DNA of 64,000 nt from Folioceros fuciformis (Eukaryota). Positions 11,056 through 61,470 of the stretch are shown here, piece by piece (position 1 is the first letter of the stretch; the number at the start of each line of letters is the position of its first letter). Made by a program: the position numbers and the translations under genes. The DNA is taken from NCBI GenBank assembly GCA_049999805.1, contig JBNGIO010006185.1, forward strand, positions 199,775 to 263,774, in the 5' to 3' direction. The notes below the pieces were generated by a model, which was given only the letters and a program-made list of their open reading frames with translations, made no database searches and had not been told where the DNA came from.

Positions 11056-13833
11056 TCAGGAAGGTAAGGGTGTATGACTGGATCCAACCTTAGTTTCTTC
11101 ATGTTGCAGAACAGCTGTTTCAGCCACATGTATGTCCTCAATCTCAGGGTGTTTCCTGTCGCCTACCGAAAAGCTATGCACCAGTCCATCCAGGTCTGTC
11201 CAGCAGCTCTGCCCTGGCTCCTTCCATGCCCCGATTTCGATTCTCCTCGCGTGCATTTCCTCTGCCTGCTCCCACATCTGGGCATCGGAGTATATCCTGG
11301 ACATCAACACATAGGCTGATGCATCTTTCTTGTCGAGCTTCACTGCTTCATGGAAAGCCCGGCGTCCCACCTTCACGTTGCACCACTTTCGACAAGCTCC
11401 TAACAGAGTGTGCCAAATTGCAGCCGTAGGCAGGACAGGCATTGCCGTTACCAGGCAAAGAGCCTCGTCTACATGGCCTGCACGGCCGAGGAGATCCACC
11501 ATGCACGTGTAGTGCTCCACCGCTGGAGGGATGCCATAATTTTTGCTCATGGCCTCAAAGTACTCTTGCCCCGTGGTCACCAGGCCTGTGTGGCTGCATA
11601 CCGTGAGGACACTAAGGAAGGTGAGGGTGTCCGGCTGGATGCCATCCTGCCTCATTCTGCAAACCAAGTTAAGGACCTCTTCGCTGTCGCCCACACGGGT
11701 GTATCCTGCAATAAGCGCACTCCAGCTTACGACATCTCGGTGGGTCAACGCATCAAACACCTGCTGTGCATCAATCATGCTCCCTGACTTAGCATACATG
11801 TTGATCAGACTGTTGCCTACGTTTGCATCGGTGTGAAACCCTCGATCTGCAATCTGTGCATGAAGCTGCCTCCCCACATCCAAAGCTGCCATACTCGCGC
11901 ATGCCTGCAGGAGGCACATAAACGTGACGGCATCAGGTGGAGAAGCACCTTCCTCTCCCATAGCACTGTATAGGTGAAGGGCTTCCAAGCCCAAGCCCTG
12001 CAGGGCATATCCTGCTATCAGGGCAGTCCACGTCACCAAAGTCTTGTAATGCATATTGTCAAACACGTTCCGTGCATCCTCTAAACTCCCACACTTTGCA
12101 TACATGTTTACTAGGCTTCCGCCGACAACTGCATCAGATTGGAGTCCTCGTTCTCGAATTTGCACGTGAAGCTGCTTCCCCTTCTCCAAAGCTGAGGTGC
12201 CCAGACTTGCACATGCTTGTAGGAGGCATATGAATGTCACAGAATCGGGTCCAGCTGTGCCCTCTTCCTCCATGGCCCTGTAAAGACTCAGGGCTTCGTC
12301 ACCCATGCCCTGCTGGGCATAGCCTGCTATCAGGGCATTCCACATCACCACACCCTTCTCACCCAGTCCATCAAACACAGCCCGAGCATTTTCCGGGCTG
12401 CCGCACTTTGTATACATGCTCACCAAACTGGTAGCTACAAAGGCGTCAGCCTGTAGCCCTCGTTCTCTGATTCGCGCATGAAGCTCCGTCCCCTTACTCA
12501 AGCCCGCGGAGCCCATACTCGCACATGCTCGCAAGAGGCACACGAAAGTCACATGATCAAGTCCGGCAACACCATCTTCTCCCATGTTGCAGTACAGACG
12601 AAGGGCCTCCTCTCCCATGCCCTGCTGCAAATACCCTGCTATCATGGCGGTCCATGTCACCACATTTTTTTGAGAAAGTCCGTCAAACAAGCCTCTAGCA
12701 TCCTCCACGCTGCCACACTTGGCATACATATTCACCAGGCTCCCACCCACAAGCACGTCACCCTCAAGTCCGTGTCCCCTAATCTGCGTATGAAGCTGTT
12801 TCCCTTTCTCCAAAGCTGGGGCGCCCACACTTGCACACGCCTGCAGGACACACACAAATGTGATAGCATCAGGCGTAGCCAAGCCTTCCTCCTCCATAGC
12901 ACTGAAAAGACTGAGAGCTTCCCGACCCATGCTCCGCTGTGAATATCCTGCTATCATGGCATTCCACGTCACCACATTCTTTTGTGCAAGTCCATCAAAC
13001 ACTCTTTGCGCCTCTTCCAAGCTCCCGCACTTCGCATACATGTCCACCAGCCCACTAGAAACGAACACATCCGGCTGAACCCCACCATCCATCATATCAG
13101 CATGCACCTGCTGCCCCGATTTCAAGTCCCCTCCTCGTGCACAAGCCTGAAGAGCTGCTACAAACACATGCCCGTCTGGCTTCACACTTGACCTCCGCAT
13201 CCTCTGGTACAGCTGTACGGCCTCTTCATCTCCCCCATGCCTGACATGCGCCGAAATTATAGCAGACCAGGTGAAGGCGTCTGGTCTGGAGACCACTTCA
13301 AACACATCCATCGCTTCTTGCAGCAGGCCGTGCGAGGAATACATCCGGATGATATGGTTACACAAGAACGTATTCGACCCGTACCCATCCTTCACGGCCA
13401 GGGCATGCACACGGCGACCAAGCTCCAGGTCCCTCTCAACCGCGCACCTCTTCAGAACAGCATAAAAAAGAAACTGTGAAACTCCACACCCTGTCTGCAC
13501 CAGAAGCCCCAAACCCTCAACAGCCTCGCCGAGCAGTCCATGCTGACAAAGCTGGTTCACGAATTCAGTCGTCAAGCCACTTCCGTACCCGGCACGCCTT
13601 GCAGAGTCACTACGATCCCGCCCGCTCCAGCTGGACGCAAGAGGCGCAAGAAAACCCGTCTGCACATGCACGACCGGCTCCTCCAAAACAGAAGAGCCAT
13701 CTAGCCATACTCCTATCAGCCGTGGTCCTCCACAGGACTTCCTCCCGCACACCGCACCCGAACCCCAGGGTGCCTCAAACCCTGTCCACAACGACGCCAT
13801 CCATAGGTTAGCATGCCTGCAATCTGCAGGCAT
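11056..13833 (-). CDS. PLS-class PPR protein with E1/E2 and partial E+ (PG/WW-like box), no DYW domain; single exon; start codon uncertain
   Basis: Repeated P-L-S triplets (LVNMYAKCGS..VVTW.A.IAGY..VTF.CLLQACAS), HYTCMVDLLGRAG, and WKEPGQSCWTDLDGLVHSFSVGDRKHP. Confidence 0.93.
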   Translation of the reverse strand: MPADCRHANLWMASLWTGFEAPWGSGAVCGRKSCGGPRLIGVWLDGSSVLEEPVVHVQTGFLAPLASSWSGRDRSDSARRAGYGSGLTTEFVNQLCQHGLLGEAVEGLGLLVQTGCGVSQFLFYAVLKRCAVERDLELGRRVHALAVKDGYGSNTFLCNHIIRMYSSHGLLQEAMDVFEVVSRPDAFTWSAIISAHVRHGGDEEAVQLYQRMRRSSVKPDGHVFVAALQACARGGDLKSGQQVHADMMDGGVQPDVFVSSGLVDMYAKCGSLEEAQRVFDGLAQKNVVTWNAMIAGYSQRSMGREALSLFSAMEEEGLATPDAITFVCVLQACASVGAPALEKGKQLHTQIRGHGLEGDVLVGGSLVNMYAKCGSVEDARGLFDGLSQKNVVTWTAMIAGYLQQGMGEEALRLYCNMGEDGVAGLDHVTFVCLLRACASMGSAGLSKGTELHARIRERGLQADAFVATSLVSMYTKCGSPENARAVFDGLGEKGVVMWNALIAGYAQQGMGDEALSLYRAMEEEGTAGPDSVTFICLLQACASLGTSALEKGKQLHVQIRERGLQSDAVVGGSLVNMYAKCGSLEDARNVFDNMHYKTLVTWTALIAGYALQGLGLEALHLYSAMGEEGASPPDAVTFMCLLQACASMAALDVGRQLHAQIADRGFHTDANVGNSLINMYAKSGSMIDAQQVFDALTHRDVVSWSALIAGYTRVGDSEEVLNLVCRMRQDGIQPDTLTFLSVLTVCSHTGLVTTGQEYFEAMSKNYGIPPAVEHYTCMVDLLGRAGHVDEALCLVTAMPVLPTAAIWHTLLGACRKWCNVKVGRRAFHEAVKLDKKDASAYVLMSRIYSDAQMWEQAEEMHARRIEIGAWKEPGQSCWTDLDGLVHSFSVGDRKHPEIEDIHVAETAVLQHEETKVGSSHTPLPS

Positions 13834-14278: not shown

Positions 14279-15715
14279 ATGGCGGACAGACCGCACCTAC
14301 TGGTGTATGCCTTGAGAGGAGGGTTAGAAGGAGCTATCAGCGCGCCGAACAACGGATTCTTGAATCCAGCAATATGGAGCGCGCTTCCGGCCGATGTCTT
14401 GGAAATGGTGCTGCTTGTCCTGCCCCGTGGAGTCCAGCACAGGTTCCGTGTGGTTTGCAAGAAGTGGCTTGCACTGCTGACCTCTCCAAAATTCCTCCGG
14501 CTGAGCGAATCTTTGGCCCCTCGTCCTGCTGCTCCTCTGGTTTGTGGCTTCGAGTACTGGAACGGAGTGGAACCGGAGACACGGATGTCCAGTCCCAACC
14601 CTAACAGTCTGTGGACCAGATCATCCTTTTGTGAATCAGCTCTTGGCAAAGCGTACAGGTTGGACCTGTCATACCTTCCCCAGAAATTTCACAACTGGTT
14701 TGAAATGTGGAGTGCTGCTGACAAGAGGGTGGTGCAGCTGTGGCGTGACTCTTCGTCTCAGATTTGTGGCTCTGTAGGAGGATTGATCTACCTACTCAAT
14801 GAGGACATTGAATGCGAACTTGTAGGACAGCGTATTTTATCCGTATGTGTGTTGAATCCTTTCACCAGAACATGGAGGGAGCTTCCACCGCTGCTTATTT
14901 ACACAGATTGGACCTACTGGACGGTCAAGCTGGAGGTTGACGAACCTGATGGCAATGGCTTTAGGTTCACTGCTGTATGCGGATCTTGTGTCGTGTACAC
15001 AGATTTGGGGGCACCTTTCAACTGGAGCGTGTATGTTTACAGCTCTGCCGAGGGAAAGACTGGCTGGGAGGTTACCATGGGGCAGCCATCGAGTGAATGG
15101 TGCATGTTTCACGTGCTGGCAGAAGGTTGGATTTATGGGCTGGCAGGAGATTTGATGTATGGTTACCTGATTTCAACCGACCGGCTGACTGCTCACAGCC
15201 TGCTCGATGGTCGTCTTGTTGCAAGGGATAGCGATCCAAGTGCACTTGAGCGTGCATTTTCCCTGGACGAAAGGATCGGTTCCGCTTCCCCTACATGCGT
15301 CCCCACGCCATCTCTGTTAGAGCATCTGGGAGCACTGTATCTGGTAAGAGCTTTTGTCGATCCCCAAGAAGAGTGGCAGATAGGAATCTGGAAGCTCGAT
15401 CGGGATATATCGGCGATGCAATGGGAGCTCAGGTCAGTGTTCCCTCGTGGGCTAGTGGAATTTAGGGAAGGCACCAGAGAGTCATATTTGCCTGTGGAGA
15501 GTTTCGACGCCGTCGTTATCGGCGACGAAATTTTTTTCATGCTGCCAGTCAGGCACAGATGTTGCAATGCGGGTCCTGATGTATCGTCCAGTTTGGTGGC
15601 TTTCAACCTGCGGGATGATTCTTGGCAGTTGGTGACTGAGAAAGTGATAATTCTTAATCCGGCAAGTGGCCGAAGCCACGGTCTGCTTGAACCTAAATTC
15701 AATGTGTGGATTTGA
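14279..15715 (+). CDS. F-box protein with F-box-associated/kelch-like C-terminus, intronless
   Basis: IWSALPADVLEMVLLVLP...RFRVVCKKW F-box; GGLIYL...VLNPFTRTWRELPPL. Confidence 0.88.
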   Translation: MADRPHLLVYALRGGLEGAISAPNNGFLNPAIWSALPADVLEMVLLVLPRGVQHRFRVVCKKWLALLTSPKFLRLSESLAPRPAAPLVCGFEYWNGVEPETRMSSPNPNSLWTRSSFCESALGKAYRLDLSYLPQKFHNWFEMWSAADKRVVQLWRDSSSQICGSVGGLIYLLNEDIECELVGQRILSVCVLNPFTRTWRELPPLLIYTDWTYWTVKLEVDEPDGNGFRFTAVCGSCVVYTDLGAPFNWSVYVYSSAEGKTGWEVTMGQPSSEWCMFHVLAEGWIYGLAGDLMYGYLISTDRLTAHSLLDGRLVARDSDPSALERAFSLDERIGSASPTCVPTPSLLEHLGALYLVRAFVDPQEEWQIGIWKLDRDISAMQWELRSVFPRGLVEFREGTRESYLPVESFDAVVIGDEIFFMLPVRHRCCNAGPDVSSSLVAFNLRDDSWQLVTEKVIILNPASGRSHGLLEPKFNVWI

Positions 15716-15943: not shown

Positions 15944-17802
15944 TCACTTGGCAGCCGCAACCATTGCTATCCTTGCATGTGTGAAAGCACTGATCACCGC
16001 AGCCAGTTGGAGCTTCTCCGAAGTTCCTGAGGCTAATCTGTACCTGATACAATAGAGGCAAACTTTATAAGATAACATAGCGAGAGGAAGCTCCGCACAA
16101 AGTGACCAAACATTTTCCACCAACCACAGACCAACGCTTACTCGGTATCAGCCAGTGCGTCCATAATCTCAACTCTAATATCCTGTGGCATATTTACACG
16201 GAAAACAAACCTGCAGACATCCACGGTTAGAGACTGACACCAAGGCAGTGGCAAGTCTTAAGGAGAGAAAAACCCCGGACACATTCTCCAAAACTCACAG
16301 CTGAAGATCCTTAATGATGTCGACTAAAGCAAAACCCTTGTGAACCTTCATTTCCGAAATCTCTGATGCAAATCAAGGAAGGAATCTGTTTGGAACGCTT
16401 TCAAGACCAGAACATGCAGGTCTACACGAAAACAGGGGCAGCAAGTGTCACCACTGGATACTTGTGTACGCATCACTGAATGGCTCATTCAGCAACCAAT
16501 GAGCGATCTGTTCTATATCCTTAGGCATGGGGTTGCCTGTACACAGATACACATCTTCTTCTGTAACATGCTCGCTTGCCATGTGCACTGACTGTGCAAT
16601 GAAACAAGAGGGATGGATCATCAGCAGCTGGAACGCTGAGGTACATGAACACCACATCACAGAAAGAAATGACCATCACCTGCAGTATGTTGAGCGCTTT
16701 TCGCATGTCCCCGTTGCAAAGACGACTGACAGCTTCCACAGCACTGTCTGTGATGTCTAAACTGAACTCACATCAGGAACATCACCTCAGTATCTGAAAG
16801 GTTAAGGTGAAGCAACTACAGCTTCTTTTCTGCTAATGGAAGCCAAACTTCACGTACCTCTCTCGGTTGCTGACAAAATGCAACCGTTCACGAACATATT
16901 GTTGATCAAGGGGCGGGAAGCGGAATCGAGTACATCGAGATTGCAAAGCTGGGATGATTTTGCTCACATGGTTGCATATAAGGCAAAACCTCGTCTTCCT
17001 CGTATACTTCTCGATAACTGCGGAGGCAATTGGACACCACAGTTTAGCTCGGGAGTCAAGTGATCTATCTACAACATGCAAACACGAAGTGTGACACGAG
17101 TGTGATTATTACTTCTACGGAGAGCAAATTGTGCATCTTTGGTCATAGCATCTGCTTCGTCCAAAATGACCAGCTTAACATTTGCGTTGGTACTGCCATG
17201 AAGAGAAGAGACATCCAGGACAAACAATATCAGAAAACAAGTCTGCAACGCATCAGGAAACCCCTACTGCCTGGGCATCCAAATTCCGCACACTCACCCA
17301 AAGCCCATGCGCTGAGTGCTGGCAAAGTCCTGTATTTGCTGACGGACAACATCAATTCCACGTTCATCGGAAGCATTGAGCTCAAGAATTTTGCTCTGAA
17401 ACTCTGAGCCATGCAGCTTCCTTGCCACTGCCAATATAGTGGATGTCTTGCCGGTCCCCGGTGGACCATAAAGCAACAGATGTGGAAGACTATTCTCATT
17501 CGTCAGCCTACCAACTGTGGATCAGAATAAGACGGGAGTCAGAAAGGCAGACATCACAATCTCATTCCCCTTAGCTTACGAGACTAAGCAAGCAATGCCA
17601 TACACAATTCGTGCCCATGCATACTTGTGTCCACGATATCTTTGTGAGCTGCAACGTCTGCTAACGACGCCGGTCTGTACTTCTCAACCCAGGGCGCGGT
17701 CTTGTCTTCCCCCGAGGCGAACGCTATTGCCTTTCCCTTGGTTCCACCCCTTCCTCCAGCACTGCCAAGCTGGGGCTCATCCACATCCATAGCTGTGGCC
17801 AT
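15944..17802 (-). CDS. RFC3: Replication factor C small subunit (yeast Rfc3 / human RFC5 type), about 9 exons
   Basis: [16 protein letters not shown] Walker [44 protein letters not shown], terminal exon [18 protein letters not shown]. Junctions are GT-AG. Confidence 0.95.
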
Positions 17803-18456
17803 CCTTCTAAACCCCAAACTGTCTCCTCTCCAATTCGAGCTATCACCGACCTAGAGTTCAGCTGGAGAACTTTCTATTTGGTACCCGCAAGACGCAAGCA
17901 CGCCAAGGTGAAGGGATGGTGCCGCAACCGCAACAAAGAATTACGAACATCCTTCATCCGCGCGAGAGCATTCTGGAGGGGTGCACCAAAGGGTGCTCTG
18001 CAAACAGCCACCAAATGCCCAGAATAAAAGCCTCCGGTTCGTACAGCCCGGAGAGAATGCTACCAAGGATGCCGTCCCTTCCCTTGCAGAGAGCAGAGGG
18101 AAAGCGCGGGAGAGCACTTAGTCCACGCAACGCTTTTACAGTTAACCTAATTAGGTTGCTAACGTTAGCACATTACAAAGTGAATGGAGCTGAGGTAACT
18201 TAAACATAAGGCACCCGCACTTTCAGGTCGTTTATGGAGAGTTCCTCCGTTGGTAGAATGGAAAGGCCGGCCACAGCTTGCGGGGGTTACAAAATGGGTA
18301 GATTTCGAGCCCGACTTCCTTTCACACAGGCGTGGCCATAGAAGGCAGCCCCACTCGTTTGCCCGACTCTTGCGTATCCTGCGAGCAGTCGACATTTCAG
18401 ACGCGGGGAATGTCCACCTTTACGTACCGGTACCCTCACGCAAGGAGGAAAATGTG

Positions 18457-20700
18457 TCAAATGCGATCTCCGCATGAACAAGACCCCGCCAGGAATGTAT
18501 GTACTCTGTGAGCATCCCGGACAATGATTTCTCGCTTCTCGAGGCGCGACATCACCTTGGTGCTACTGTGGCAATCATCGCACATGCGAAGATTTTTGGT
18601 GACTAGCAAGGTGGCACCATCTGGTGTGTTGAGCAAACCATACGCCAAGGCAAGCTTCTCTGCATGTCCACACAACGCATCCTCCTTTTCCTGCTCAGAC
18701 ACGGCCTTCAGCACCAACTGTGTATGTGGAACATGGCCCCCTTCCTCCTTGAGCCTCATATTAACGTCTCTCAGCTTGGGCTTGATGTCAGACCTCTCTT
18801 CCCCTACCGTGAACTCGTGCACCTGGCTTTGCAATTCAATGCATGCCTTGGCAGCTTTCTTCACAGCGCCGGCTCGTTTCCTCAAGTTTTCTATCTGCTC
18901 CACCTCCTTCCACCTGCCTGCGTTGGCATAAATGTTCCCCAACAGGGAATATGAACTTGCATCATGAGGTGCCAATTGAACGAGGTGGTCGAAACACCGT
19001 CGCCCTCGCTCTACGTCACCATAGCTCTTGCAAGCAGCCAGCAAAGCTGTCCAGCCCACGTCATTGGCACGTGCCCTACTCCGCAACATATCCTCCGCCT
19101 TGTCCAGATGGCCTGCACGACCGAGGAGGTCCACCATGCATATGTAATGCCGATCTGCTGGCTTGATGCCATGGTCCTGCATCATAGTGAAGAACCGATG
19201 CCCCTCCTGCACCAGCCCAGCGTGACTGCATGCCACCAAGAGGGCAGTGAAAGTTGTATCGTCAGGCTGAACACCCTGCTGCAACATCTCTTCAAAGCAC
19301 CGAATCGCCTTGTGGACGTCGCTGTGCACAGCGTACCCATTGACGAGGGCATTCCAAGTCACCACATCTCTTCTGGGCAAACTGGCAAACACTTCGCAGG
19401 CCTGGTCCATACTCCCGCACTTCGAGTACATGTCCACCAGGCAACTGCCGATGAAGACATCACTTTCCAGACCTTTAGTTCGAATCTGCGAGTGAAGCTG
19501 CATCCCCTGCTGCAGCGCTCCCACACTGGCACATGCCTGTAAAAGAGACACAAATGTGACATCATCAGCTGGAGTTTTGCCCTCGTGTTGCATACTCGAA
19601 TACAAAGCCAGAGCTTCTCGCCCTTGCCCCTTCCGAGAATATCCTGCTATCAAGGCATTCCACGTCACCACATCCCGTCTGGGCAAGCCGTCAAAAACCT
19701 TGCGAGCATCATCCAAGCTGCCACACTTAGCATACATATTCACCAAGCTGTTGCCAACGAAAACATCGGCCTCTACAGCACCGGCCCGGATGTCACCATG
19801 CACCTCCTTGCCGGCAGCCAAATCCTCTGCAGAGGCACACGCCGTAAGAGCTGCTACAAAGACATGGTTGTCCGGATCAACGCCTGTACCTGATTCTTTC
19901 ATCTGCCGATAGAAATCCATTGCCTGCTTAGGCCTTCCGTGTCTGGCATGCGCCGAAATGATGGAAGACCACATGTAAACATCTGGCGTAGTGACACCTC
20001 TGAACGCCTGCACAGCTTCCTCCAGTTTGCCGTGAGCCGCATACATACCAATCACATGATTAGCCAAGAACTCACTCGACCCCAACCCCCTGGTCAGAGC
20101 AAGAGAATGCACGCGCCTCCCGCAACCAAGATCCTTGTCCGCCACGCATCTTTTGAGCACTCGGTAGAAAAGAGTGCGGCTCACATAACATCCCCGCTGC
20201 ACAAGTTCATCCAAGGCGTCCACAGCTTCCCTTAGCTCCGCCTTCTCACAGCGTGTGACCAGATCCCGAACCAGCAAATCCTCGTCTGCATCTCCGACTC
20301 GTGATCTAGCCAAGTGCGGCAGCTCCACCAAATACCACGCCTCCTCCGCAACCTTCCCCGCATCACCAGGCACCCAGGCGGGCCTGAGATCATTGTCCAG
20401 CCACAGCGGCTCGTTGGAGGTTTTGTGCCTGAAGTCGGGATGGTGCGGGCTCTTCTTGCCAGACCTGTTGTCCCACCAGTGTGACGGATTTGAAAAGAAG
20501 TGATGCCACAAGAGCTCCTGCCGCGCTCTCTCCGGGATAAGCCCACCCTCCGTCCAGCTGCTTCCATGATGAGAGGGGGGGGAAGCGACCGAGCTTGAAC
20601 CACATCGCACATGGCCGCCAGAGGCGTTACGAATCACACATTCTGCACTCATCCAGGAAGAAGAGGGCGTGGTGCTCTGCATTTCGCACCACTGTCGCAT
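18457..20700 (-). CDS. PLS-class PPR protein with DYW:KP-type deaminase domain (ends DRI) and an N-terminal OSB-like PDF motif; candidate U-to-C editing factor
   Basis: PLS repeats and E domains, KKAAKACIE in place of the PG box, CGHAEKLALA, KNLRMCDDCH, CSCGDRI*. The ORF extends to an ATG at 20802 that lies inside the LINE. Confidence 0.93.
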   Translation of the reverse strand: MRQWCEMQSTTPSSSWMSAECVIRNASGGHVRCGSSSVASPPSHHGSSWTEGGLIPERARQELLWHHFFSNPSHWWDNRSGKKSPHHPDFRHKTSNEPLWLDNDLRPAWVPGDAGKVAEEAWYLVELPHLARSRVGDADEDLLVRDLVTRCEKAELREAVDALDELVQRGCYVSRTLFYRVLKRCVADKDLGCGRRVHSLALTRGLGSSEFLANHVIGMYAAHGKLEEAVQAFRGVTTPDVYMWSSIISAHARHGRPKQAMDFYRQMKESGTGVDPDNHVFVAALTACASAEDLAAGKEVHGDIRAGAVEADVFVGNSLVNMYAKCGSLDDARKVFDGLPRRDVVTWNALIAGYSRKGQGREALALYSSMQHEGKTPADDVTFVSLLQACASVGALQQGMQLHSQIRTKGLESDVFIGSCLVDMYSKCGSMDQACEVFASLPRRDVVTWNALVNGYAVHSDVHKAIRCFEEMLQQGVQPDDTTFTALLVACSHAGLVQEGHRFFTMMQDHGIKPADRHYICMVDLLGRAGHLDKAEDMLRSRARANDVGWTALLAACKSYGDVERGRRCFDHLVQLAPHDASSYSLLGNIYANAGRWKEVEQIENLRKRAGAVKKAAKACIELQSQVHEFTVGEERSDIKPKLRDVNMRLKEEGGHVPHTQLVLKAVSEQEKEDALCGHAEKLALAYGLLNTPDGATLLVTKNLRMCDDCHSSTKVMSRLEKREIIVRDAHRVHTFLAGSCSCGDRI

Positions 20701-20779
20701 ATCTCCTCGGATTCTACGACATCGACACCACTGCGGGGCGGGCTTCCTGTCTCCGCGATTGAATTCAAGATGTCCAGCA

Positions 20780-22922
20780 TAATCGATTGGCGTGCCTTTC
20801 ATTTTTAACCATCATATTCCTCATCGGGGCAGGAAAGGCCTTCCAACTCAACTCAACTGATCCATTGGGTCTTTCACTTTCCGTCAATATGATATTGTTG
20901 CTCTCATCATCATATATGTACCTTAGGGTTCACCAATCTCACCTATTTTTTTCCTTTTTTCACTTCTGATTTCTTATTCAACTTCAAACTATGGGTGATG
21001 GCAACATTGGCTGGATTAATGACACGGGGCATATGTCATTGCTCCTTCATGCAAAAAGTCTACAAAGAAACTTCAGGCTATGCTTCGTGTGGCATCGGAG
21101 TGGGCCTCCACACACTTCGTGGAATTCGATTCTAACAAAATTGAACTTATTCATTTTTCCCTGAAGCGTAAGGAATCAACAAAGGAATGTACTCTTTCGT
21201 TACCCGATGGTTCCCTTATCACTCCCTTCGAGTGTATTAGGTTTTTGGGCTTCTATTTGGATTCCAAGTTAACTTGGAACACGCATGTTCATCAGGTTTC
21301 GGCTTCCGCAATGCGTACTTTGTCAGCTATTATCTCTCTTGGGAATTCAGTTTGGGGCCTCAATGCCAAGCTTCTTCGACAATTATACATTAGTGTTGTC
21401 CTGCCCAAGCTCGATTACGGCTGCAATGTCTGGTCCAACGGAGGTCGTACATACATTCAACACCTCCAACGGGTCCAACGTCTTGCCTGTAAGGCCATTA
21501 CTGGTGTGTTTCGAACTATCTCCACTGATGCCCTGGAATTTGAAGCTTTTCTTCCGCCCACAGAGTTGCGCCTCCAACGCCATTCTCTCCGTTCTCTCTT
21601 GCGGAACGTCTCCTGCCCTCCCTCTCACCCCATCCATCAAGTCTTTCTTCCTACGACTAACTACAAAAAACACTACCACAATGCTATCCGTAGTCGCCTA
21701 ACACTCCTTTCCCCTAGTACTCTGTACTCCACTTTAGGCCTGCCCACCTCCACTGCCATTCAGACTATTTTTCCTCGACTCGTACCTCCCTGGGCCTCTC
21801 CTCTTTTTTTACCCACAACCATCGTAATTTTACAATCTCCCACTTCTGCTATTGCCTCACATTCCCTACATCTTTTGACCCCTGATGCCCTTGCCATTTA
21901 CACTGATGGTTCTCTTCTGGATGGTCAGGCTAGGGGCGCGGCTATTTTCTACTTTGAAGGGGATATTGTCCATCAATTATCTTTGGTTTAGAAACATACT
22001 ACGGGGTTTATGAGGCAGAACTCCTCTTTGTGGTCAAAGCAATTTCATGCTTGCCCACCCTCTTTGCTTCCATCCCCAGGATTTCGTCAGTTACAATTTT
22101 CCTTGATAATCAAGCAGCTATCATGTCTTGAACGGACACTTCGGCTCGCCCAGCCCAAGCCATATCTCTCCAAGCTAGGACATCTCTCCATGCCTTCTCA
22201 GTAGCTCATCTGGAGGCTTCCCTTAATCTCCACTGCATTTCAGGCCATCATAATATAGTTGGTAATGAGCATGTAGATGTAACCGCTAAGGCTGCCACTC
22301 TTCTTCCCATTTCCCGCGAAGACCGGATTCTATCAATGTCCAGAGCTCGCCAGCAAATTCATGCTGCAATTCTACAGGAGTGGCGTTTATGGTGGTTTTC
22401 CTCAACTAAGGCTTCTGCACTTAAGAGGGTGGTGCTTGGTGGCCCTTCAGCCTCGGTGCTACAACACCTTGGTCTCCATAACCGTAAGCTTTCATCATTT
22501 CTCACCTAGCTTCGGACTGGGCATATGGCTATTGGTGCTTACTTTAGGAGATTCAACATTGCAGAGGATCCATTTTGTCGGAAATGCAGGTCTTCAGAAG
22601 AAACTCGTCACCACATCCTTGGCTAGTGTATGGCCACTCGCAACACTTGGATCCAGGCGTTTCAAGGCTCTTACTACGATATCCGCCAACTTCTTAGTGT
22701 TCCCAAACTCAGGGAAAAGCTTCTATCTTACTTCAAGGCGATTGGCGATTACTTAACTTAGGCTTATTGACATAGCTATCTAGATTTGCTATTTTGTTTG
22801 CTCTAATCCTCTTTCTTTTGCGCTTTCCCAAAGTGTCCATTCAATCATGTTTTTGATTCACGTTCCGTCGTCATAGCCTCACGGCTGCATACGCCTAATG
22901 ATAAATAAATAAATAAATAAAT
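20780..22922 (+). mobile_element. 5'-truncated, degenerate non-LTR retrotransposon (LINE with RT, RNase H and Cys-His knuckle; Tad1/I-group-like) with 13-bp TSD
   Basis: TSD aagatgtccagca at 20767-20779 and 22923-22935; (TAAA)n tail at 22901-22922; remnant RT GSPISP; IRFLGFYLDSKLTW; RNase H AIYTDGS...GHHNIVGNEHVD; RTGH..CRKC..ETRHHI. Several stops and frameshifts. Confidence 0.93.
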
Positions 22923-23080
22923 AAGATGTCCAGCAGCTTTCTCCGAACCGACAAACTCCTTATCCCTCACCAACACTGACTGTGAATTTCGACGTTCATA
23001 GGGTCATTTTGCGACATTTCTGACACCAATTTTATTATTGGGGTTGCTCTCGAGCCAGTCTCTAAGCTCTTGCACCTACG

Positions 23081-23709: not shown

Positions 23710-24312
23710 TAACCAAACTTGGCTAAGGAAGGAGAATGAGCCCAAAATATCCTTCACTGAATCTGGCTAGGAAGGAGAATGAGTGTGAAACAACGTTCAC
23801 CAAATCTGATTAGGAAGGAGTATGAGCAGGAAATAACCTTCACCAAATCTGACTAAGAAAGGAGGATGAGCACTAGACAACCTTCTCTGAATCTCACAAA
23901 AGAAGGAGGATGATCACCGAACAACCTTCACCAAATCTCACAAAGGAAGGAGGATAAGCACCAAATAAGCATTGCCAAATCTTGTAGAGGAAGGAGGATG
24001 AGCAACAGACAAACCTTCACCAAATTTTGAAGAGGAAGGGGTATGAATAGCGGACAGCCTTCACCAAATCTTGCCAGAGGATGAGCACCGGACTATGTTC
24101 ACTAAATCTTGCTCGCTGAGGAAGGAGGATGAGAGGATGAGCACCGGACTATGTTCACTAAATCTTGCTCGCTGAGGAAGGAGGATGAGCTCTGGACGAC
24201 CTTCACCAAATCTTGCTTGCTGAGGAAGGAGGACGAGCNNNNNNNNNNCTGGACGACCTTCACCAAATCTTGCTTGCTGAGGAAGGAGGACGAGCACTGG
24301 ACGACCTTCACC
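23710..24312. repeat. Minisatellite of 43-48 bp units (about 13 copies, spans an N-gap)
   Basis: Recurring ttcaccaaatct...ggaaggaggatgagc. Copies become more homogeneous toward 24300. Confidence 0.9.
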
Positions 24313-24849
24313 CGCGTACCACACTTACTCTCTCCTTTTAGCTCTATGTCCTGGTTCCTTTAGTCATTACTTTTATTTTATTTTATGGAACTTTGGGAAT
24401 TGAAAGCGTAATACATATTCGGTTCGAGACCTTTCCATCTTGGCAGGTTCTTCTGTTGGCCGTCGATTCTGGTGCTTAGATAGCTGCCTACCTGGGTTGG
24501 TATGGCTGCCCATGCCGATCTTCGTTCGATGGATCGTGGTAGAGAACTTCCCGATTTTACCCTAAATCCTAAACCCGAGATTTAGATCCGGAGCGGCAGC
24601 AACTAGGCATGGGCTGGATTTGTTCAAACATGGTGGATGTCTGAACGAGCGTTCGTTGCCACTGTGGATATCGCATCCCAGGCGAGAAATGAGGAGGTTG
24701 GAAAGGCGTACGGTCTTTGAACGATGGCCCCAGAATGAAAACCAGACCCGCTGTACAACCAGCAAATAGGGGTGTGTCCAGGGATTCTTCCAGGAGCACC
24801 CGCTCACCTCAGCTTAGGGGTTCAACTCCTGGCAAACAACAACGAGTTC

Positions 24850-25824
24850 ATGACCACAAAGGATGTGGTTACATGGACTGCCCTGAGTGCTGGCTACGTG
24901 GAGCACGGGCTCGGACATGAGGAGCTTGTTGTGTATGGGCAAATGGAGCAGGAGGGCCTGGTTTCGGCTGACCATGATACTTTTGCTTGCCTTCTGGAGG
25001 CCTGTGGAAGCATTGTTGCCTTACAGAAGGGCAGACAGAATTCCCAGGTTGTCAAAATGGGACTCCTGGATGATGCAGAGGTGGGCTCCTGCCTGGTGCA
25101 CATGTGCTTTTTGGACAGCTTGGCCACAAAGAAGGTAGGGACGTGTGGACTACTCTCATTGCTGGGTATACACAGCGAGGACTCAGCCAAAATGCGCTGG
25201 TTGCGTAGGGACAAATGGAGTAGGCAGGCTTTACTTGGGCTCACAAAGTTCCTCTTGCTTCCTTTCTGAAGGCCTGTGGAAGCACTGGTGCGTTACAGAA
25301 GGGCAGGCAGCTGCACTCACTGACGGTCGAAGGAGGACTGCAAGATGACCTAGTAGTGGGCACCTGCTTGGTGGACATGTTAGATTGTTAAGCACAATGC
25401 TTAGCAGGAGCGAACAAGAAACCTGCAGTCACTACCATCGAGGTGAATAAGCAGGTACATAGATTTGTGGTGGGAGAACGGAGAGAGGATATTGCGCTCA
25501 AGGTAGAGAGCACTAACGCGCGTCTGAAGCACGAAGGAGGCCACGTACCTCACACGAAGGTGGTGTTGAATTCAGCCACTGTCTGAGAAGGAAAAGGAAG
25601 ATGCACTTTTTGGACATGCTGAGAAGCTAGCTCTGGCTTTTGGCCTCTTGAACACTCCCTGTGGAATACCTCTGGTGGTAACCAAGAATCTACGCATGTG
25701 CAGCGACTGCCACAGCTCCACGAAGATCATATCAAGGCTTGAACAAAGAGACATTGTTGTAAGGGATGGCTACCGTGCGCATTGATTCACAAACGGTCAC
25801 TGCACTTGTCAGGGGCGACCGTGA
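24850..25824 (+). pseudogene. PPR-DYW:KP pseudogene with GRP terminus
   Basis: Broken PLS repeats (KDVVTWTALSAGY, TFACLLEACGS), then AGANKKPAVTTIEV..EGGHVPHT, a frameshift near 25570, GHAEKLALAFGLL..KNLRMCSDCH, a premature TGA at 25783, and CTCQGRP*. Confidence 0.9.
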
Positions 25825-27263: not shown

Positions 27264-28418
27264 TCAGACCAGATGCCTTGAGCTGAGATCAAAGTGATAA
27301 GGTTGACAGTCACCATTCCACTTCGTAGTCCACTTGTCCTGAAAAGGAACACACCACCCTTGCCACTTCTTGAGAGCGACATGATAGCACACCACATGTT
27401 TCACCTTGGTGCTCAAGGGCCCCAAAATGATAAAACTGCTGCATATGAGGCCCCGGGAGGATACTACTTTTTGAGTACTCCAAGATGTGTAGCCCCACTC
27501 TCCAAGCATGGTTTTCATCTCCCCTTCGCCCAGCTCTGCAATCTTGTGGCGACGCATGGTCCACAAGTCTATTTCATAAATCCGCAGCCTTGGCTTGCTC
27601 CTGCTACGCCGTACACGGTAAAGACAGCCCTGATGCTTGACAAGACCAAAGTGGCCGCGCCAGTAGCTTGTGCGCCTGGACAAGATACAGCTGCAATAAG
27701 CATCTTCCACAAGCTGCCTCCTTGTTTGCTCTGGCAGCACCATTTGGCGACGAGCTGCAACTCCATCCACATATCTGACAGGAATCGACTCCACAAACGT
27801 CCAGCTACAAGTCCTGGAATCGTAGGCGTGCAACCTTGGAGTCTGGACTATAGTCCAATCGATCGTCCCGCACCCAACAAACAGCTTGTAGGAGTCATGA
27901 TAGACAAAGAGAGTTGCAAAGAGCACGTTGAAAGTGTCAGGAAGCTCCAGTTCTGGCAGTTGCTTGAATCTCCTGGTGATAGGATTACAAATATAGAACG
28001 GCTGCTGGATATTACACAGCACATCTTCCTTCCATCGTGCCAAGCAGAGAAGGCCGCTTGCTGCGGAGCAAGGATAAAGGCCGTCCGCCGGAAGATAGGG
28101 CAGACTCCATTTGATTTCCTTTATAGGTTCTGGAAGACTAAGAGGTCCAGCCTTGCCTTCCTGTTCATTCAACATCACCATACATGGAGGAGGGGTAGAC
28201 AGGCCACTCCACTCGTCCAGAAACCGCGCATCAGACAACAAGTGGAGCCAGGACTTGCAAACTGTACGAAACCGCAGCAGCTGCCGGAGGGGCAATAGCG
28301 TCAGTATCTTCTCCAGGATCTCCTGCGGCAACCAGCTCCACACTGCAGGGTCCATACTCACAGACTCCTCTCCCTCTGATTCCACACCATCTAGCAGAAG
28401 CCCGAAATACGTGCCCAT
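27264..28418 (-). CDS. F-box protein, intronless
   Basis: MDPAVWSWLPQEILEKILTLLPLRQLLRFRTVCKSW; ASGLLCL..ICNPITRRFKQLP. Confidence 0.88.
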   Translation of the reverse strand: MGTYFGLLLDGVESEGEESVSMDPAVWSWLPQEILEKILTLLPLRQLLRFRTVCKSWLHLLSDARFLDEWSGLSTPPPCMVMLNEQEGKAGPLSLPEPIKEIKWSLPYLPADGLYPCSAASGLLCLARWKEDVLCNIQQPFYICNPITRRFKQLPELELPDTFNVLFATLFVYHDSYKLFVGCGTIDWTIVQTPRLHAYDSRTCSWTFVESIPVRYVDGVAARRQMVLPEQTRRQLVEDAYCSCILSRRTSYWRGHFGLVKHQGCLYRVRRSRSKPRLRIYEIDLWTMRRHKIAELGEGEMKTMLGEWGYTSWSTQKVVSSRGLICSSFIILGPLSTKVKHVVCYHVALKKWQGWCVPFQDKWTTKWNGDCQPYHFDLSSRHLV

Positions 28419-29765: not shown

Positions 29766-32700
29766 ATGTCTCGGTTCCAAATGTGGATGCTTCTTCTGGC
29801 CCTGATTTGCTGCCGGAGCAGCAGCATTCACATTGGAAGCGCGGTTGTGGAAGGCGTTCCCACTGGCAGCTCGTTTGTGTCCAGCTCCCGACATTATCTG
29901 CGTTTTTTGTCCACGATGCATTTGCCAAGCTCTGGTATGGACTAAATCCGTCACTCCTTTAGTCTACGATTAGCTTGGTCTTGCATCCGCATGCTTGACC
30001 TAATGTATGATTTGCAAGGTGTTTAAGGCAATGTCATTGACAAGCACTCGGCGCCTGATGATTCTGCGCAAGGAGATAGTCGCATGCAGAGGCTTACCAG
30101 GCGTCGCTTTGTTGAAGAGTCTTCAAATTTGGTGTCTGGTGGGTCATTATCTGTCATCTGAGCAGTTGTCTGCTGGTATCATGTACTTCACCCCCGTACT
30201 GCATGGAATTCGCTAAGACGAGACAGTGTGCTTGTCCTTTCATATGCAGGGGCATGCGTTCTCAAGGAAGATGCGGAGGACAGTCCGGATGCTATCGAGC
30301 GATCTGTCCTGTTAGAACTCAAGGCTTCCGTTACCAAAGACCCTAGTGGAGTCTTGCGAAGCTGGCAAGACTCCAATGACAGTGCATCGCATTGTACCTG
30401 GGAGGGGATCCAGTGTGACAGGCAATGCCGTGTGGTGTCCCTGAATTTGGCTAATAGGTTGCTGGAGGGTACTATTACCCCAATGCTGGGGATCTTGTCT
30501 GGCTTGACTAGTCTGAACTTGTCCGGAAACCATTTTCATGGACAAGTTCCGGCAGAGCTGGGGCATGCTACATCCTTGAGGACGCTGGATCTGAGTGTGA
30601 ATGACGGCCTTTCCGGCTCAGTTCCAGCTGCACTCAGTAACATCACAAATCTGGAGATTCTCATGCTGTCCAATCTTTCGTTGACAGGATCTGTTCCCGC
30701 AGTTCTGGGTAGACTGCAGTCATTGAGGATATTGAACTTGGCATTCAATCAGCTGTCTGGTCCCATTCCTAGTGCGCTAGGCAGGATGTCCTCCCTTTCC
30801 GTTCTGAATTTGTCTTGGAATTGGTTCATAAATGGAAGCATTCCGGCGCAGCTTGGAAACCTGACAAGGTTAGATACTCTTGATCTGTCAGGATGCATTT
30901 ATCTCACGGGCGGCATTCCTTCGGAATTGGGGCATGCAACATCGTTAAGGAACTTGTATCTGAGCAACAGTCAGTTGTCAGGCTTCATTCCTGCGGCCTT
31001 CGGAAATCTTACCAATTTAGTGCATTTAAATCTGCGCAACACCCTCCTAAGTGGCACCATACCAAGCGCACTGGGAAGATGCCACAAGCTTGCCGTCTTT
31101 GCTCTGGGCTGGGATGCCTTGCTGGAGAAAGGGTACATTACCGGTGAGATTCCGGAAGGTTTGAGGAATTGCACGTCGCTCAGGGAATTGAGGCTGCGGG
31201 GCAACCGATTGACAGGTACAGTTCCTCCAATTCTGGGCATGCTGTCTGGTTTAGCCTACTTGGACTTGGGGATGAACAATCTCACAGGCACAATCCCCAG
31301 CACATTTGGCAACCTGAGTCGTTTGCAACTCCTCTCCCTGGGTGCCAATGATCTCCACGGGCAGATACCTGGGGAACTGCAGCAGCTGCGAATGCTGCAA
31401 GGCATAGGCCTGGACATCAATCGGCTTTCAGGGCCCTTGCCTGATTGGTTCGGCAACTTCACGCACATGTGGGGAATCGGTGTTGGGTTCAATCAACTCA
31501 CTGGAAGCATTCCACTGGACTTACCAGCAACATTGACATGGTTTAACATTGCAGGCAATCCGATGTCGGGATCGATACCTCGATCAATGGGCAACCTCAC
31601 CAGGCTGGAATCCCTTGTTCTCATGGGCACCGACTTGAGTGGTCCTATTCCACCAGAACTATCGAAGTGCTGGAAGCTGAAGTTTCTCACGATCGGGCGA
31701 GCATCAGACTTGTTCAATAAAAGCAACATCAGTGGCGTGATACCCGAGGAACTGGGGCAGCTGAGATTTATGGAGTTTCTGTGGTTGAGTTGGACGCAAT
31801 TGACAGGACCCATCCCTCCTTCTCTTGGCAATTGCAGCCGCTTGGTGAACCTGACCCTGCATTCCAATTCTCTAACAGGGTCTATCCCCTCCTTTCTCGG
31901 CAGTCGTCAGACTCTGGCATACCTCAATCTAGCAGACAACCAGTTGACTGGGCAGATACCTGAGGAACTCTTCCAGCACGGTGGAATCATATCCCTTCAC
32001 CTTGCGCACAATCATCTCACAGGTCCAATCCCTGGGAACATTGGAGATCTTCATCAACTCCAGGTACTGTACGTGAACGACAACAACCTGACTGGTCGGA
32101 TTCCCTCGTCCCTCAGCAACTGCCCCAACCTCCAGCAACTGGATCTTTCAGGGAATGATCTGGAGGGGGATGTCTTCTCCGACGCTCTTCAACCCCTCGT
32201 CAGCACGATCCGCCTATTGAACCTGTCTAAGAACAGGTTTACAGGCACAATTGCCGCCTGGTTGTCCAACGCAACCATGTTGCGCATCCTAGTGCTATCG
32301 GGAAACCGATTCAGCGGTGAGCTCCCACAGAATCTATCAGCTCTCCAGGGGTTCACAGACCCACACAATCACACCATCTTTCGAGACGATTACTCCAACG
32401 ACTATGCAGGTCTAGAGGTCACCACCAAGGGCACCATCCAGAACTACACCCGCCTCTACTACTCCACAACCATCCTGGACCTGTCCGACAACTCCTTCGA
32501 GGGCACAATCCCCGTCGAGATGGGCAATCTTCTCTACCTGCGCTTCCTCAACATGTCCCACAACAGGCTCACGGGAGAGATCCCCTCCACTCTCAGCAAC
32601 CTCAAGGAGCTGGAGCAGATGGACTTGTCAAACAACCAACTCACAGGATCTATTCCATCATATGTGGGAGACCTTGACCTGCTCAGTGCCTTCAATGTCT

Positions 32701-32996
32701 CCTACAACAATCTGTCAGGACCCATCCCAGGCACACCCAAATTCTCCCGCTTTGAGGAGTGGTCATTTGTGGGCAACCCCAACCTGTGCGGCCCTCCTCT
32801 CCACTCTCAATGTAAGCTTCCACCAGCAGGTCAAGCTCCCCTAGCCCCGCCTTCATCTCCACAACCAGCATCCCAGTTCATGCTAGATTCCATCTCACTG
32901 GCAGGCTTCTGTGTGGGATTTAGCGTGGCCTTCATCACCACCCTGAGCTTCCTTCTCTTCACCCACAGGGGATGGTCGTACATCAACGTATTGTAG
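29766..32996 (+). CDS. LRR receptor-like protein (no kinase); exon 1 29766-29934 (signal peptide), exon 2 30250-32996
   Basis: Signal peptide MSRFQMWMLLLALICC; in-frame phase-1 GT-AG intron; LRRNT HCTWEGIQC; many LxLxxNxLxGxIP repeats; island domain before the last LRRs; GNPNLCGPPL; transmembrane segment GFCVGFSVAFITTLSFLLF; short tail. Confidence 0.92.
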
Positions 32997-40266: not shown

Positions 40267-41064
40267 CTAACGAGTGAATCCGACTTTGTCCGCATACTCA
40301 AATTGAGCAGCGAGGCGATCGAGCTGGCCCTTGACACTCATGTCGATGGAAGAGGAGCCGTCCTTCCCGTACTTGATTATGAAGCCTGCAATGAGAGAAG
40401 GATCGATGACGTTCTTCAACCTGACATTCTGAGCTCCGCTGAGAGATTGAATCTTCTTGGCAATAAGAGCTAGCTGGCTGTTTTGAATTTTCACGGCAGA
40501 GGTGACCACGGCGGCCTGAGTGTTTGTGAGCACGTTGTAAAGGACCTCGAACTCCTTGACAATGTCCTTGATGAGACCTATCCTCTTCTTGTCCACCAGG
40601 AGATACAGGAAGCTGAGCGTGTACTGGTTGAAGCGCGCATCCTTGGCCAGCTTCGCAAGCACGTCCTTCTTCTTCTCATCCGGCACCACAGGGCTCACCA
40701 AAAAGTCGAACACCTCAGGATCCTCCAACACAGAGGCCACCTTGTCCACGTCCTCGTTCACCTTGTCCAAAGTGCTGGTAGACTTGGCCAAGTCCGCCAA
40801 AGCACCCGCATAGCCTGCCGCTGCGGAGTCCGCCGCCATGCACACAACAGCACGGTGTCCCGAGCTCTTCCCTCTCGCTACCGGCACCTTGGAAGCCACC
40901 GCATTACGACTACGGCATAGAAAGCCGGCGCGGAGACTTGCCACCGGCCTCGCTCCTACCGAAGCCCGGACAGAAGTCCCGGAACAAGACGCCACAACAT
41001 CCACTCCCTTGGCCGGAGCTACACAAAACCTCCTCGACGCAACAGACTGCAGCAAAGCATCCAT
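40267..41064 (-). CDS. ATPD: Chloroplast ATP synthase delta subunit (nuclear-encoded, transit peptide), intronless
   Basis: SAAAGYAGALADLA, FLYLLVDKKRI, AVVTSAVKI, VRLKNVIDPSLIAGFII, IDMSVKGQL. Confidence 0.95.
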   Translation of the reverse strand: MDALLQSVASRRFCVAPAKGVDVVASCSGTSVRASVGARPVASLRAGFLCRSRNAVASKVPVARGKSSGHRAVVCMAADSAAAGYAGALADLAKSTSTLDKVNEDVDKVASVLEDPEVFDFLVSPVVPDEKKKDVLAKLAKDARFNQYTLSFLYLLVDKKRIGLIKDIVKEFEVLYNVLTNTQAAVVTSAVKIQNSQLALIAKKIQSLSGAQNVRLKNVIDPSLIAGFIIKYGKDGSSSIDMSVKGQLDRLAAQFEYADKVGFTR

Positions 41065-59697: not shown

Positions 59698-61470
59698 TCA
59701 GTTGGGAATTCTGTCCTTCAGGTACTGCAATAGAGCTTTGGTTCCACGCTCCAGGAGAGGGCGGCGGATGGTACGGAGGGGGTTCCCTTCCACCTTCAAG
59801 CTACGGAGGGATGACTCCAGCAAACCCAGCTTCGGAGGCAGGACAGAGATGTTGTTGTCTGCCAGGTTCAGCTCTTCCAGCTGTGTCAATTCAACGAGAC
59901 CTTCCACGACGACTGAGATGGAGTTTTGGCTCAAGTCTAGGACTCGCAGGTTAGTCAAGAGGCTCACGTCAGCTGGTATTTCCTGTAGCTGCATTCGCTG
60001 GAGTCTGAGTTCCTTGAGGTCAGGCATCTGTGAGAGAGAGGGGGGAGGTGGGAGAGGAGCCTTGATGCCACTCAGGTCCAGTATATGCAGCTTGGAGACG
60101 CCTGCAAACGCATCCTGAGGAAACTGAAGCAGTGGATTGTGAGCCAGCACCAAATGACGAAGGTTAGACAATGACGACAAAACAGAACCTGGCCATTCTT
60201 GGATCTTGTTGTCAGCCAGGAGAAGAGTAGTGAGAGAGGAGCAGCTCTGGACCTCGGGGGGGAGCTGCTGGATGTTGTTCTTGCAAAGATCCACCGTAGT
60301 GACTGCATCCCCTGCCCACACTTCGGCAGGAACAGCATCTAGCTTCAACCCTGCGAGTGAGAAGACCTTGGATGAGACTGCCTGCCTTGATGCCATAACC
60401 ACTACCTCCTGTACATCTGCCCCGAAAACATTGCCAGAGGCAACAGCTGCAGTGCTGGCCACTTCTGGCACCGGCAGCCTGCTTCTTAGGAACTTGAGCA
60501 ACGAAGGTGTTGATCCAGAGACCATAGAGCTTCGCAGAGACCGTAACGGATTCCCTATAAGTACCAGCTTCCGTAAGGTTGTCATGTTCCCAAGTTCTGC
60601 CGGCAAACCTGCCAAGTTATTGTTGGACAAGTCCAGAACTGAGAGACGCAAGGAGCAAGCCTCCACGGGAAACACTGTAAGCTGGTTGCCATGCAAGTCA
60701 AGAGTGGCCAGCGCTTTCAGACAGCCCATCTCCGGCGGGAGAGACGAGATGCGATTCAGGCCAAGGGACAGTTCAGCAAGAGAAACACAACCAGAAATGG
60801 CAGGACACAGAACTGAGATGCGGTTCTGATGAAGATCCAGCCGGATCAAACGCACAAGTACCTCCAGCCCTCCAGGCATCTCCGTCAAACAATTTTTCGC
60901 AGCATTAAGCTCTGTCAGAGAAGGGAAGCACCCAAGGTTAAGCAGCTTCACAAGCTTATTCCCCTCGGTCTCAAGCACTGTCAGACGGGAGCAGCGCGCT
61001 AGCTCCTCTGGCAAGGTGGTGAGTCTGTTATTCGATATCCTAAGATCAACCAGGTCCCCGCAGTTGCCAATGGTAGAAGGAAGGTTCTCCAACAGGTTGT
61101 TGGAACACTGCAACTTGACAAGTGCCGACAGACACCCTATCTCGTCAGGTAGCTGAGACAAGAGATTACCCGACACATCGATTGACTTTAGCAGAATCAG
61201 GCTGCCGATTGAAGAAGGCAGGCTTGCCAGCTTATTGTAACTGAGATTCAAAAGGGTCAAGGACGTCAGGGATCCAATATCCTCAGACAGAACCTTAATA
61301 CTGTTGTGCGCAAGAATCAGTTTCTGCAACTCCACCATCTCCCACCACTTCTCATCTGAGCCAGGTGCAGTCTCGATCGGGATGTACACTTGAGGAGGCA
61401 CCTCCGTCAAAGCCCTGTTAGACAGATTGAGAGAGCCAGACGCTCGTGCTGCTTTCAGCAGCTTCTCCAT
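59698..61470 (-). CDS. Intracellular LRR protein, LRRC40-like; single coding exon
   Basis: MEKLLKAARASGSLNLSNRAL, EKWWEMVELQKLILAHN, GNPLRSLRSSMV, GNPLRTIRRPLLERGTKALLQYLKDRI. Confidence 0.92.
   Translation of the reverse strand: MEKLLKAARASGSLNLSNRALTEVPPQVYIPIETAPGSDEKWWEMVELQKLILAHNSIKVLSEDIGSLTSLTLLNLSYNKLASLPSSIGSLILLKSIDVSGNLLSQLPDEIGCLSALVKLQCSNNLLENLPSTIGNCGDLVDLRISNNRLTTLPEELARCSRLTVLETEGNKLVKLLNLGCFPSLTELNAAKNCLTEMPGGLEVLVRLIRLDLHQNRISVLCPAISGCVSLAELSLGLNRISSLPPEMGCLKALATLDLHGNQLTVFPVEACSLRLSVLDLSNNNLAGLPAELGNMTTLRKLVLIGNPLRSLRSSMVSGSTPSLLKFLRSRLPVPEVASTAAVASGNVFGADVQEVVVMASRQAVSSKVFSLAGLKLDAVPAEVWAGDAVTTVDLCKNNIQQLPPEVQSCSSLTTLLLADNKIQEWPGSVLSSLSNLRHLVLAHNPLLQFPQDAFAGVSKLHILDLSGIKAPLPPPPSLSQMPDLKELRLQRMQLQEIPADVSLLTNLRVLDLSQNSISVVVEGLVELTQLEELNLADNNISVLPPKLGLLESSLRSLKVEGNPLRTIRRPLLERGTKALLQYLKDRIPN

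Follow-up and report, generated by a model that had tools for sequence, protein, structure and literature searches.

An OSB-type PDF motif ahead of the PPR array of a candidate KP-class editing factor in Folioceros fuciformis

The stretch of Folioceros fuciformis DNA considered here (NCBI GenBank assembly GCA_049999805.1, contig JBNGIO010006185.1, positions 199,775 to 263,774; hereafter the window, 64,000 nucleotides in all) is a gene-dense plant nuclear region of 49.5% G+C. Its minus strand carries at 18457-20802 an intact, uninterrupted open reading frame (ORF P0001) of 781 codons plus a stop, in which a motif of the plant organellar single-stranded DNA (ssDNA)-binding proteins, the OSB proteins, lies ahead of a PPR editing factor. 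Read from the N-terminus, the product consists of a sequence-variable presequence (residues 1-86; 20545-20802), a PDF motif or domain delimited by profiles, alignment and AlphaFold2 modeling (residues 87-148; 20359-20544), a linker that differs in length and sequence among homologues (residues 149-170; 20293-20358), a PLS-type PPR array (residues 171-593; 19024-20292), E1/E2 motifs (residues 594-648; 18859-19023) and a 133-residue DYW domain of apparent KP class (residues 649-781; 18460-18858) that starts KAAKAC and ends DRI.

PPR editing factors are usually described as a transit peptide followed by a PPR array, E motifs and a DYW domain. Pfam assigned the array to the PPR, PPR_1, PPR_2 and PPR_3 families with E values down to 2.3e-57, and found E_motif at residues 594-649 (E 9.6e-15) and DYW_deaminase at residues 689-779 (E 6.7e-36). 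With HAE at residues 713-715 and CDDCH at residues 741-745, the protein has the features of a PLS-class PPR-E-DYW editing factor. The array contains about 12 PLS motifs, a count made by eye from the sequence with no tool behind it. At E<=1 no Pfam family was found in the first 191 residues; hence, the PDF motif has no Pfam model. The layout of the OSB family is a central SSB-like OB fold followed by a C-terminal PDF motif, and the 781-residue protein gave no SSB match at E<=1. Judged by its domains, the ORF product has one domain in common with the OSB proteins without being an OSB protein.

The PDF motif has about 50 residues, is named for Pro-Asp-Phe and is found in at least one copy behind the OB fold of OSB proteins (PMC6963530, PMC4166229, PMC13393729). 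On its own the PDF motif of AtOSB1 can bind ssDNA (PMC6963530), and both AtOSB1 and AtOSB2 prefer ssDNA to double-stranded DNA or RNA (PMC4166229). The initial annotation proposed that an OSB-type PDF motif is encoded at 20371-20517, which corresponds exactly to residues 96-144 of the ORF (ELLWHHFFSNPSHWWDNRSGKKSPHHPDFRHKTSNEPLWLDNDLRPAWV). This proposal was borne out by a test set beforehand. A profile was built from 51 PDF copies of 26 SSB-domain proteins, leaving out PPR rows and the query, and was run against all six-frame stop-to-stop frames of the window, 1303 in number. On it the ORF scored 68.9 bits (E 7.6e-21) and the runner-up frame had an E value of 0.24. By both pattern and profile the motif is single in the six frames of the window, and the neighboring PPR-E gene (11056-13833, minus strand) lacks it, as had been claimed. 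The motif is somewhat wider than first drawn, extending over residues 87-148 with the local profile and residues 93-145 with the OSB-only profile; the Pro-Asp-Phe signature within it is P122-D123-F124. An alignment of 17 motif rows has 13 invariant columns, with Trp, Phe, Arg, Lys and His among their residues, and the window copy matches every one of them.

The likeness goes well beyond chance. When residues 81-165 were searched with phmmer in a set of 1.84 billion representatives, 663 proteins matched at E<=1e-3, 172 at E<=1e-10 and 18 at E<=1e-30. Every match lay at about positions 13-66 of the query, and 2-13 copies were seen in many of the proteins. Among them was an SSB-bearing protein named 'OSB1, mitochondrial-like [Drosera capensis]' (E 6.4e-13). 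(A word-index search with the same residues, a method too insensitive for this task, returned one match among 33 candidates.) When the best 150 phmmer matches were typed with Pfam at E<=1e-5, SSB (PF00436) lay N-terminal to the motif copies, as in OSB proteins, in 26; 12 were PPR proteins, one was a kinesin, two had weak unrelated Pfam matches and 109 had no Pfam family. The figure of 12 is probably an undercount because several short no-family matches end in PPR-like sequence, one of which carries the name 'pentatricopeptide repeat protein'. From these comparisons we take the window motif to be a true OSB-type PDF motif. It has the OSB pattern W..(F)F..P..WWDNR..K..PDF(K/R)HK...LW(L/I)....P.WV, but differs in position: in OSB proteins the PDF motif is C-terminal to the OB fold, whereas in the window protein it is N-terminal to the PPR array and no SSB-like OB fold is present. 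The window copy scored 83.2 bits on a profile of 31 PPR-linked copies versus 70.1 bits on the OSB profile, 13 bits apart, the query having been left out of both; cross-scores of the two profiles on their own training copies are circular, the left-out query being the exception.

PDF arrays were also seen beyond OSB and PPR proteins. A protein of the dinoflagellate Effrenium voratum has nine copies and a Kingdonia protein has 13; three copies precede the kinesin motor of a Coptis chinensis protein, and PDF copies are found in a Striga protein named ICR2-chloroplastic. A review states that the motif is confined to green plants (PMC4166229).

Whether the motif is in the mRNA was examined in contigs of public sequencing runs. 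Run X1, the kind of which is a guess by the software, contains 0.83 of the sampled words, and no RNA run was listed as containing them. Its record 1 (2584 nucleotides, 0 differences) runs from 19539 down to 17625 and then crosses five introns of the next gene with CT..AC ends, which are GT..AG on the minus strand. Since record 1 is spliced across five introns, X1 contains RNA-derived sequence. A second X1 contig (record 3, 1056 nucleotides, 0 differences) covers 19714-20769 on the minus strand and joins the motif, the linker and the first PPR motifs unspliced. Thus, the PDF-PPR-DYW gene is transcribed and the motif is not spliced out. The motif region 20371-20517 is also covered by contigs of runs X2, X3 and X7, which are from other organisms and about 93% alike. 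The indels listed for these contigs, at 20299-20308 and 20568-20570, are outside the motif, which hints weakly at constraint. The ORF is not spanned in full by any one contig because a conserved PPR repeat common to many paralogues splits the assemblies at 19538-19754; contig depth there is about 100-fold higher, and in all four runs many contigs join or break at this place. No contig of the four runs covers 20840-23000, and this gap in coverage was not used as evidence. As a separate observation, X1 record 1 continues unbroken from inside the PPR ORF (19539) past its stop into the next gene, which suggests overlapping or read-through transcripts.

In-frame ATG codons lie at 20802 (M1), 20700 (M35), 20682 (M41) and 20652 (M51). 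The latter three are all upstream of the PDF motif and the next in-frame Met falls within the PPR array. The X1 contig ends at 20769, below the first ATG; since it stops short of M1, the real start may be M35, M41 or M51. From M35 on the presequence is Ser-rich and without Asp, and presumably is a transit peptide.

We then considered the class of the deaminase, which the initial annotation gave as a candidate KP-type, U-to-C editing DYW domain. KP-class domains are marked by K-P in place of P-G at the domain start and by Ala or Cys in place of Ser in HxE (PMC11845758), and by a variable C-terminal triplet, with DRH and GRP subgroups in hornworts, and a length of mostly 133 residues (PMC11845758, PMC9478123). 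KP proteins and U-to-C editing are named for hornworts, lycophytes and ferns (PMC11845758, PMC9478123), and the natural KP proteins are candidate U-to-C factors only (PMC11845758). The last 133 residues of the ORF product start K-A-A-K-A-C, contain HAE and CDDCH and end in DRI. Hence, Ala follows the zinc-binding His and the C-terminal triplet is DRI rather than DYW, as expected of the KP class. The name-giving pair qualifies the claim: there is no P-G and the Lys is kept, but Ala replaces Pro, giving K-A. This site also varies in KP-like relatives (KKLAKAV, KRSAKAC, KKRASA and KKAGKA). K736, at position 88 of the last 133 residues, is kept in PG domains too and so cannot tell the two classes apart. 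The closest relatives, at 52-55% identity, read KKPAKAC|IEV, have HAE and end in DRH, DAH or GRP. By overall likeness (HAE, the Lys88 equivalent, DRI) the DYW domain is of the KP class, closest to the DRH subgroup, and a candidate for U-to-C editing. With the PPR-DYW:KP proteins of the hornwort DRH subgroup the window protein has in common the PLS array, E1/E2, a 133-residue DYW domain, HAE, CxxCH, Lys88 and a non-DYW end; it differs in having K-A rather than K-P, DRI rather than DRH and an added N-terminal PDF domain. The available portions of PMC11845758 and PMC9478123 mention no N-terminal PDF-like domain for KP proteins.

The PDF-PPR arrangement recurs in other plants. PPR-bearing proteins among the best 150 motif matches include four from Adiantum capillus-veneris, one from Pteridium aquilinum, three from Diphasiastrum complanatum and one from Sphagnum compactum, the last being a canonical PPR-E-DYW protein. 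An N-terminal PDF with 1-3 copies was present in 15 of 120 listed whole-protein PPR homologues, from Calypogeia fissa, several Sphagnum species, Diphasiastrum and others. The OSB-only profile matched all 29 of the PPR-linked proteins re-tested as well as the query, again with 1-3 copies and always at the N-terminus. In 16 aligned PDF-PPR N-termini an unalignable presequence is followed by the conserved motif, a variable linker of 20-45 residues and the first PPR motif. In seven homologues (P0098, P0120, P0127, P0130, P0272, P0006 and P0141) only 16-32 residues separate the annotated start from the motif, not enough for a usual organellar presequence; these are either truncated models or proteins with different targeting.

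The initial annotation had proposed to test for enrichment of the motif in KP proteins. Deaminase typing of 77 DYW proteins did not support a special link, the motif being found on two of 26 KP-like proteins (query included) versus six of 51 PG-like proteins. It also occurs on PPR proteins of liverworts and Sphagnum, clades outside the hornworts, lycophytes and ferns. The fusion is neither a local oddity nor KP-specific. Because the layout is common to liverwort, Sphagnum, lycophyte and fern PPR proteins with PG as well as KP domains, the PDF domain on PPR proteins is an ancient module maintained by selection, and did not arise by chance at this locus alone. Where the source of a row among the 120 homologues is named, the motif was on three of four from Calypogeia, six of seven from Sphagnum and five of 18 from Diphasiastrum, and on none of those from Adiantum (0/7), Ceratopteris (0/4), Ceratodon (0/1) or Funaria (0/1). 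Hence, 14 of 42 named non-seed rows had the motif versus none of 23 seed-plant rows (Ginkgo 19, Cryptomeria 4). The Fisher p value of this contrast is 0.0011, but the rows are interrelated, were picked by likeness to a non-seed protein and have possibly truncated N-termini, and thus we regard it as a lead and not a result. A FastTree tree of 418 motif copies placed the PPR-linked copies in 18 pure clades and the window copy with P0006, P0122 and P0195 (support 0.76); an alignment of 50 residues cannot tell one fusion event from several.

AlphaFold2 modeling of residues 82-153 with the 17-row alignment gave a compact domain (pLDDT 85.9, pTM 0.71) with one helix at residues 91-104, another that starts at residue 144, and short strands at WWD and FRH. 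When modeled in context (residues 51-330), residues 91-150 had pLDDT values of 85-95, flanked by presequence at about 40 (residues 51-86) and by linker below 50 (residues 159-169); helix pairs with values above 90, the PPR array, start at residue 171. The PDF domain is thus predicted to be a separate, independently folding module held on a short flexible tether, about 10 disordered residues in the model, ahead of the first PPR motif. Searches of solved structures gave no sequence match at E<=1, a best Foldseek E value of 3.2 and a best Z of 3.3 in a wide VIA-align search, and the best ESM Atlas score, 0.77, was within noise. The absence of a similar solved structure does not show a new fold.

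A full-text literature search, to which supplements, Zaegel 2006, Gerke 2020 and Gutmann 2020 were outside, returned no paper tying the PDF motif to PPR proteins. The 2026 OSB evolution paper (PMC13393729) lacks the words 'PPR' and 'pentatricopeptide', the 2026 kingdom-wide survey of editing factors (PMC13386178) lacks 'PDF' and 'OSB', and the hornwort genome paper lacks 'OSB'. The motif and the protein class are each known, but the architecture in which the window protein combines them appears not to have been described so far.

Several neighbors of the gene merit a brief description. In the gene downstream (16500-18060, minus strand), spliced contigs of runs X1, X2 and X3 confirm five short introns of 88-110 nucleotides with GT..AG ends. 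The product of this gene has PWVEKYRP near its start and is presumably a candidate small subunit of replication factor C. Just upstream of the PPR gene is a 303-residue ORF (21080-21991, plus strand) without a Pfam family, which may have been left behind by a mobile element. A second KP-type PPR-DYW gene, at 24739-25785 (plus strand), is degraded to pieces in three frames with stops, such as KKPAVTTIEVNKQVHRF and FGHAEKLALAFGLLNTP...CSDCHS; no PDF motif was found upstream of it, and it is flanked on the 5' side by tandem repeats and an N run (24239-24248). The wider context includes genes for a chloroplast-type ATP synthase delta (OSCP) protein (40267-41064, minus), two F-box/KIB1-propeller proteins (14279-15715, plus; 27264-28418, minus) and two LRR proteins (30483-32996, plus; 59698-61470, minus). 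The ATP synthase delta protein has no close counterpart in a named proteome: its best named matches, from Calypogeia and Diphasiastrum, are 62-66% identical. Its roughly equal distances to the liverwort, moss and lycophyte proteomes, taken together with the DRH- and GRP-type relatives of the DYW domain, suggest a hornwort but do not prove it.

What might the PDF domain do on an editing factor? The initial annotation put forward tethering to nucleoids or nascent transcripts, or RNA melting, as conceivable roles. PPR arrays read RNA with the N-terminus toward the RNA 5' end. Since the array N-terminus faces that end, the PDF domain would sit just 5' of the PPR footprint. Our working proposal, which we hold with belief evenly balanced for and against, is that it acts in cis as a sequence-independent single-strand nucleic-acid binder at the 5'-side end of the array. 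Bound there, it could add affinity or residence time on the substrate RNA and could keep the substrate single-stranded for the PPR array and the deaminase, thereby doing in cis the job of trans-acting helpers such as MORF in seed plants. The ligand might be RNA or nucleoid ssDNA, with RNA slightly favored, as that is the substrate of all other parts of the protein. MORF proteins are restricted to seed plants (PMC13386178), and the replacement idea would fit the weak pattern given above (0/23 seed-plant versus 14/42 named non-seed rows). There are known parallels for a helper function added to a PPR array: maize PPR4, in which an N-terminal RRM joins an extra nucleic-acid-binding function to the array, and the MORF, ORRM and OZ editing helpers, which act in trans (PMC13386178). 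The window module differs from these systems in being a PDF domain and in residing on PLS-class, editing-type proteins of non-seed plants, where its helper role is conjectural.

Several points weigh against this proposal of a cis-acting binder. The roles of the domain in binding, localization and editing on PPR proteins are hypothetical, and that the domain is kept in the mature protein is presumed from conservation and the predicted fold. In the homologues with the motif 16-32 residues from the annotated N-terminus there is little room for a presequence. The motif is absent from 24 of the 26 KP-like and 45 of the 51 PG-like DYW proteins and editing as such therefore does not depend on it. Nothing about function can be read from the fold, as neither sequence, Foldseek nor VIA-align searches found a solved structure like the PDF model. 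Finally, the preference of AtOSB1 and AtOSB2 for ssDNA over RNA (PMC4166229) favors another explanation, that the domain is a nucleoid tether. It would then bind ssDNA (the non-template strand, R-loops or replication and recombination intermediates), concentrate the factor on nucleoids and allow co-transcriptional editing with no RNA contact. The only biochemistry quoted for PDF motifs is indeed ssDNA binding, preferred over RNA (PMC6963530, PMC4166229), and the predicted flexible linker would suit a tether. However, in all 16 aligned proteins the short linker puts the domain next to the 5'-side end of an RNA-reading array, a position that suits RNA contact too, and we consider tethering without RNA contact possible but rather unlikely.

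We think it decidedly unlikely that the domain binds no nucleic acid and is instead a protein-protein module that oligomerizes or docks to an organellar factor such as an editosome partner or the OSB and recombination proteins. A make-up of Trp, Phe, Arg, Lys and His is typical of single-strand binders, and the invariance of these residues would argue against a purely protein-binding role. Although the motif is found on the unrelated scaffolds of the Coptis kinesin and the Striga ICR2-chloroplastic protein, as mobile interaction modules behave, and AtOSB2 is described as a tetramer (PMC6963530), the AtOSB1 PDF motif is sufficient for ssDNA binding (PMC6963530). The segment is near the N-terminus and might be lost with the transit peptide or be a nonfunctional leftover from an ancient gene fusion, without a role in the mature protein. 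This seems highly improbable given that the motif is conserved from liverwort to moss, lycophyte, fern and this plant while its flanks vary, that the predicted fold is confident and compact, and that it occurs in 1-3 copies, a manner in which presequences are not conserved. The cis-acting binder could also be given a history, one we consider unlikely as a whole: the PDF domain would be an ancestral, built-in cis helper of land-plant PLS editing factors, holding substrate RNA or the transcribing nucleoid, that was kept in bryophytes, lycophytes and ferns and was lost from seed-plant PPR proteins as MORF-type trans helpers took over.

The finding widens the known range of the PDF motif past the OSB proteins. 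It bears on how non-seed editing factors might gain affinity without MORF-type helpers, since a conserved, apparently separately folded module at the 5' side of the array in about one-third of the named non-seed PLS proteins sampled makes a hypothesis that can be tested by deletion. Designer C-to-U and U-to-C editors are now built without such a domain (PMC9478123), and it is a candidate component for them. If the history of an ancestral cis helper is true, a single nucleic-acid-binding module would be common to OSB proteins and PPR editing factors and would connect the upkeep of organellar genomes with RNA editing.

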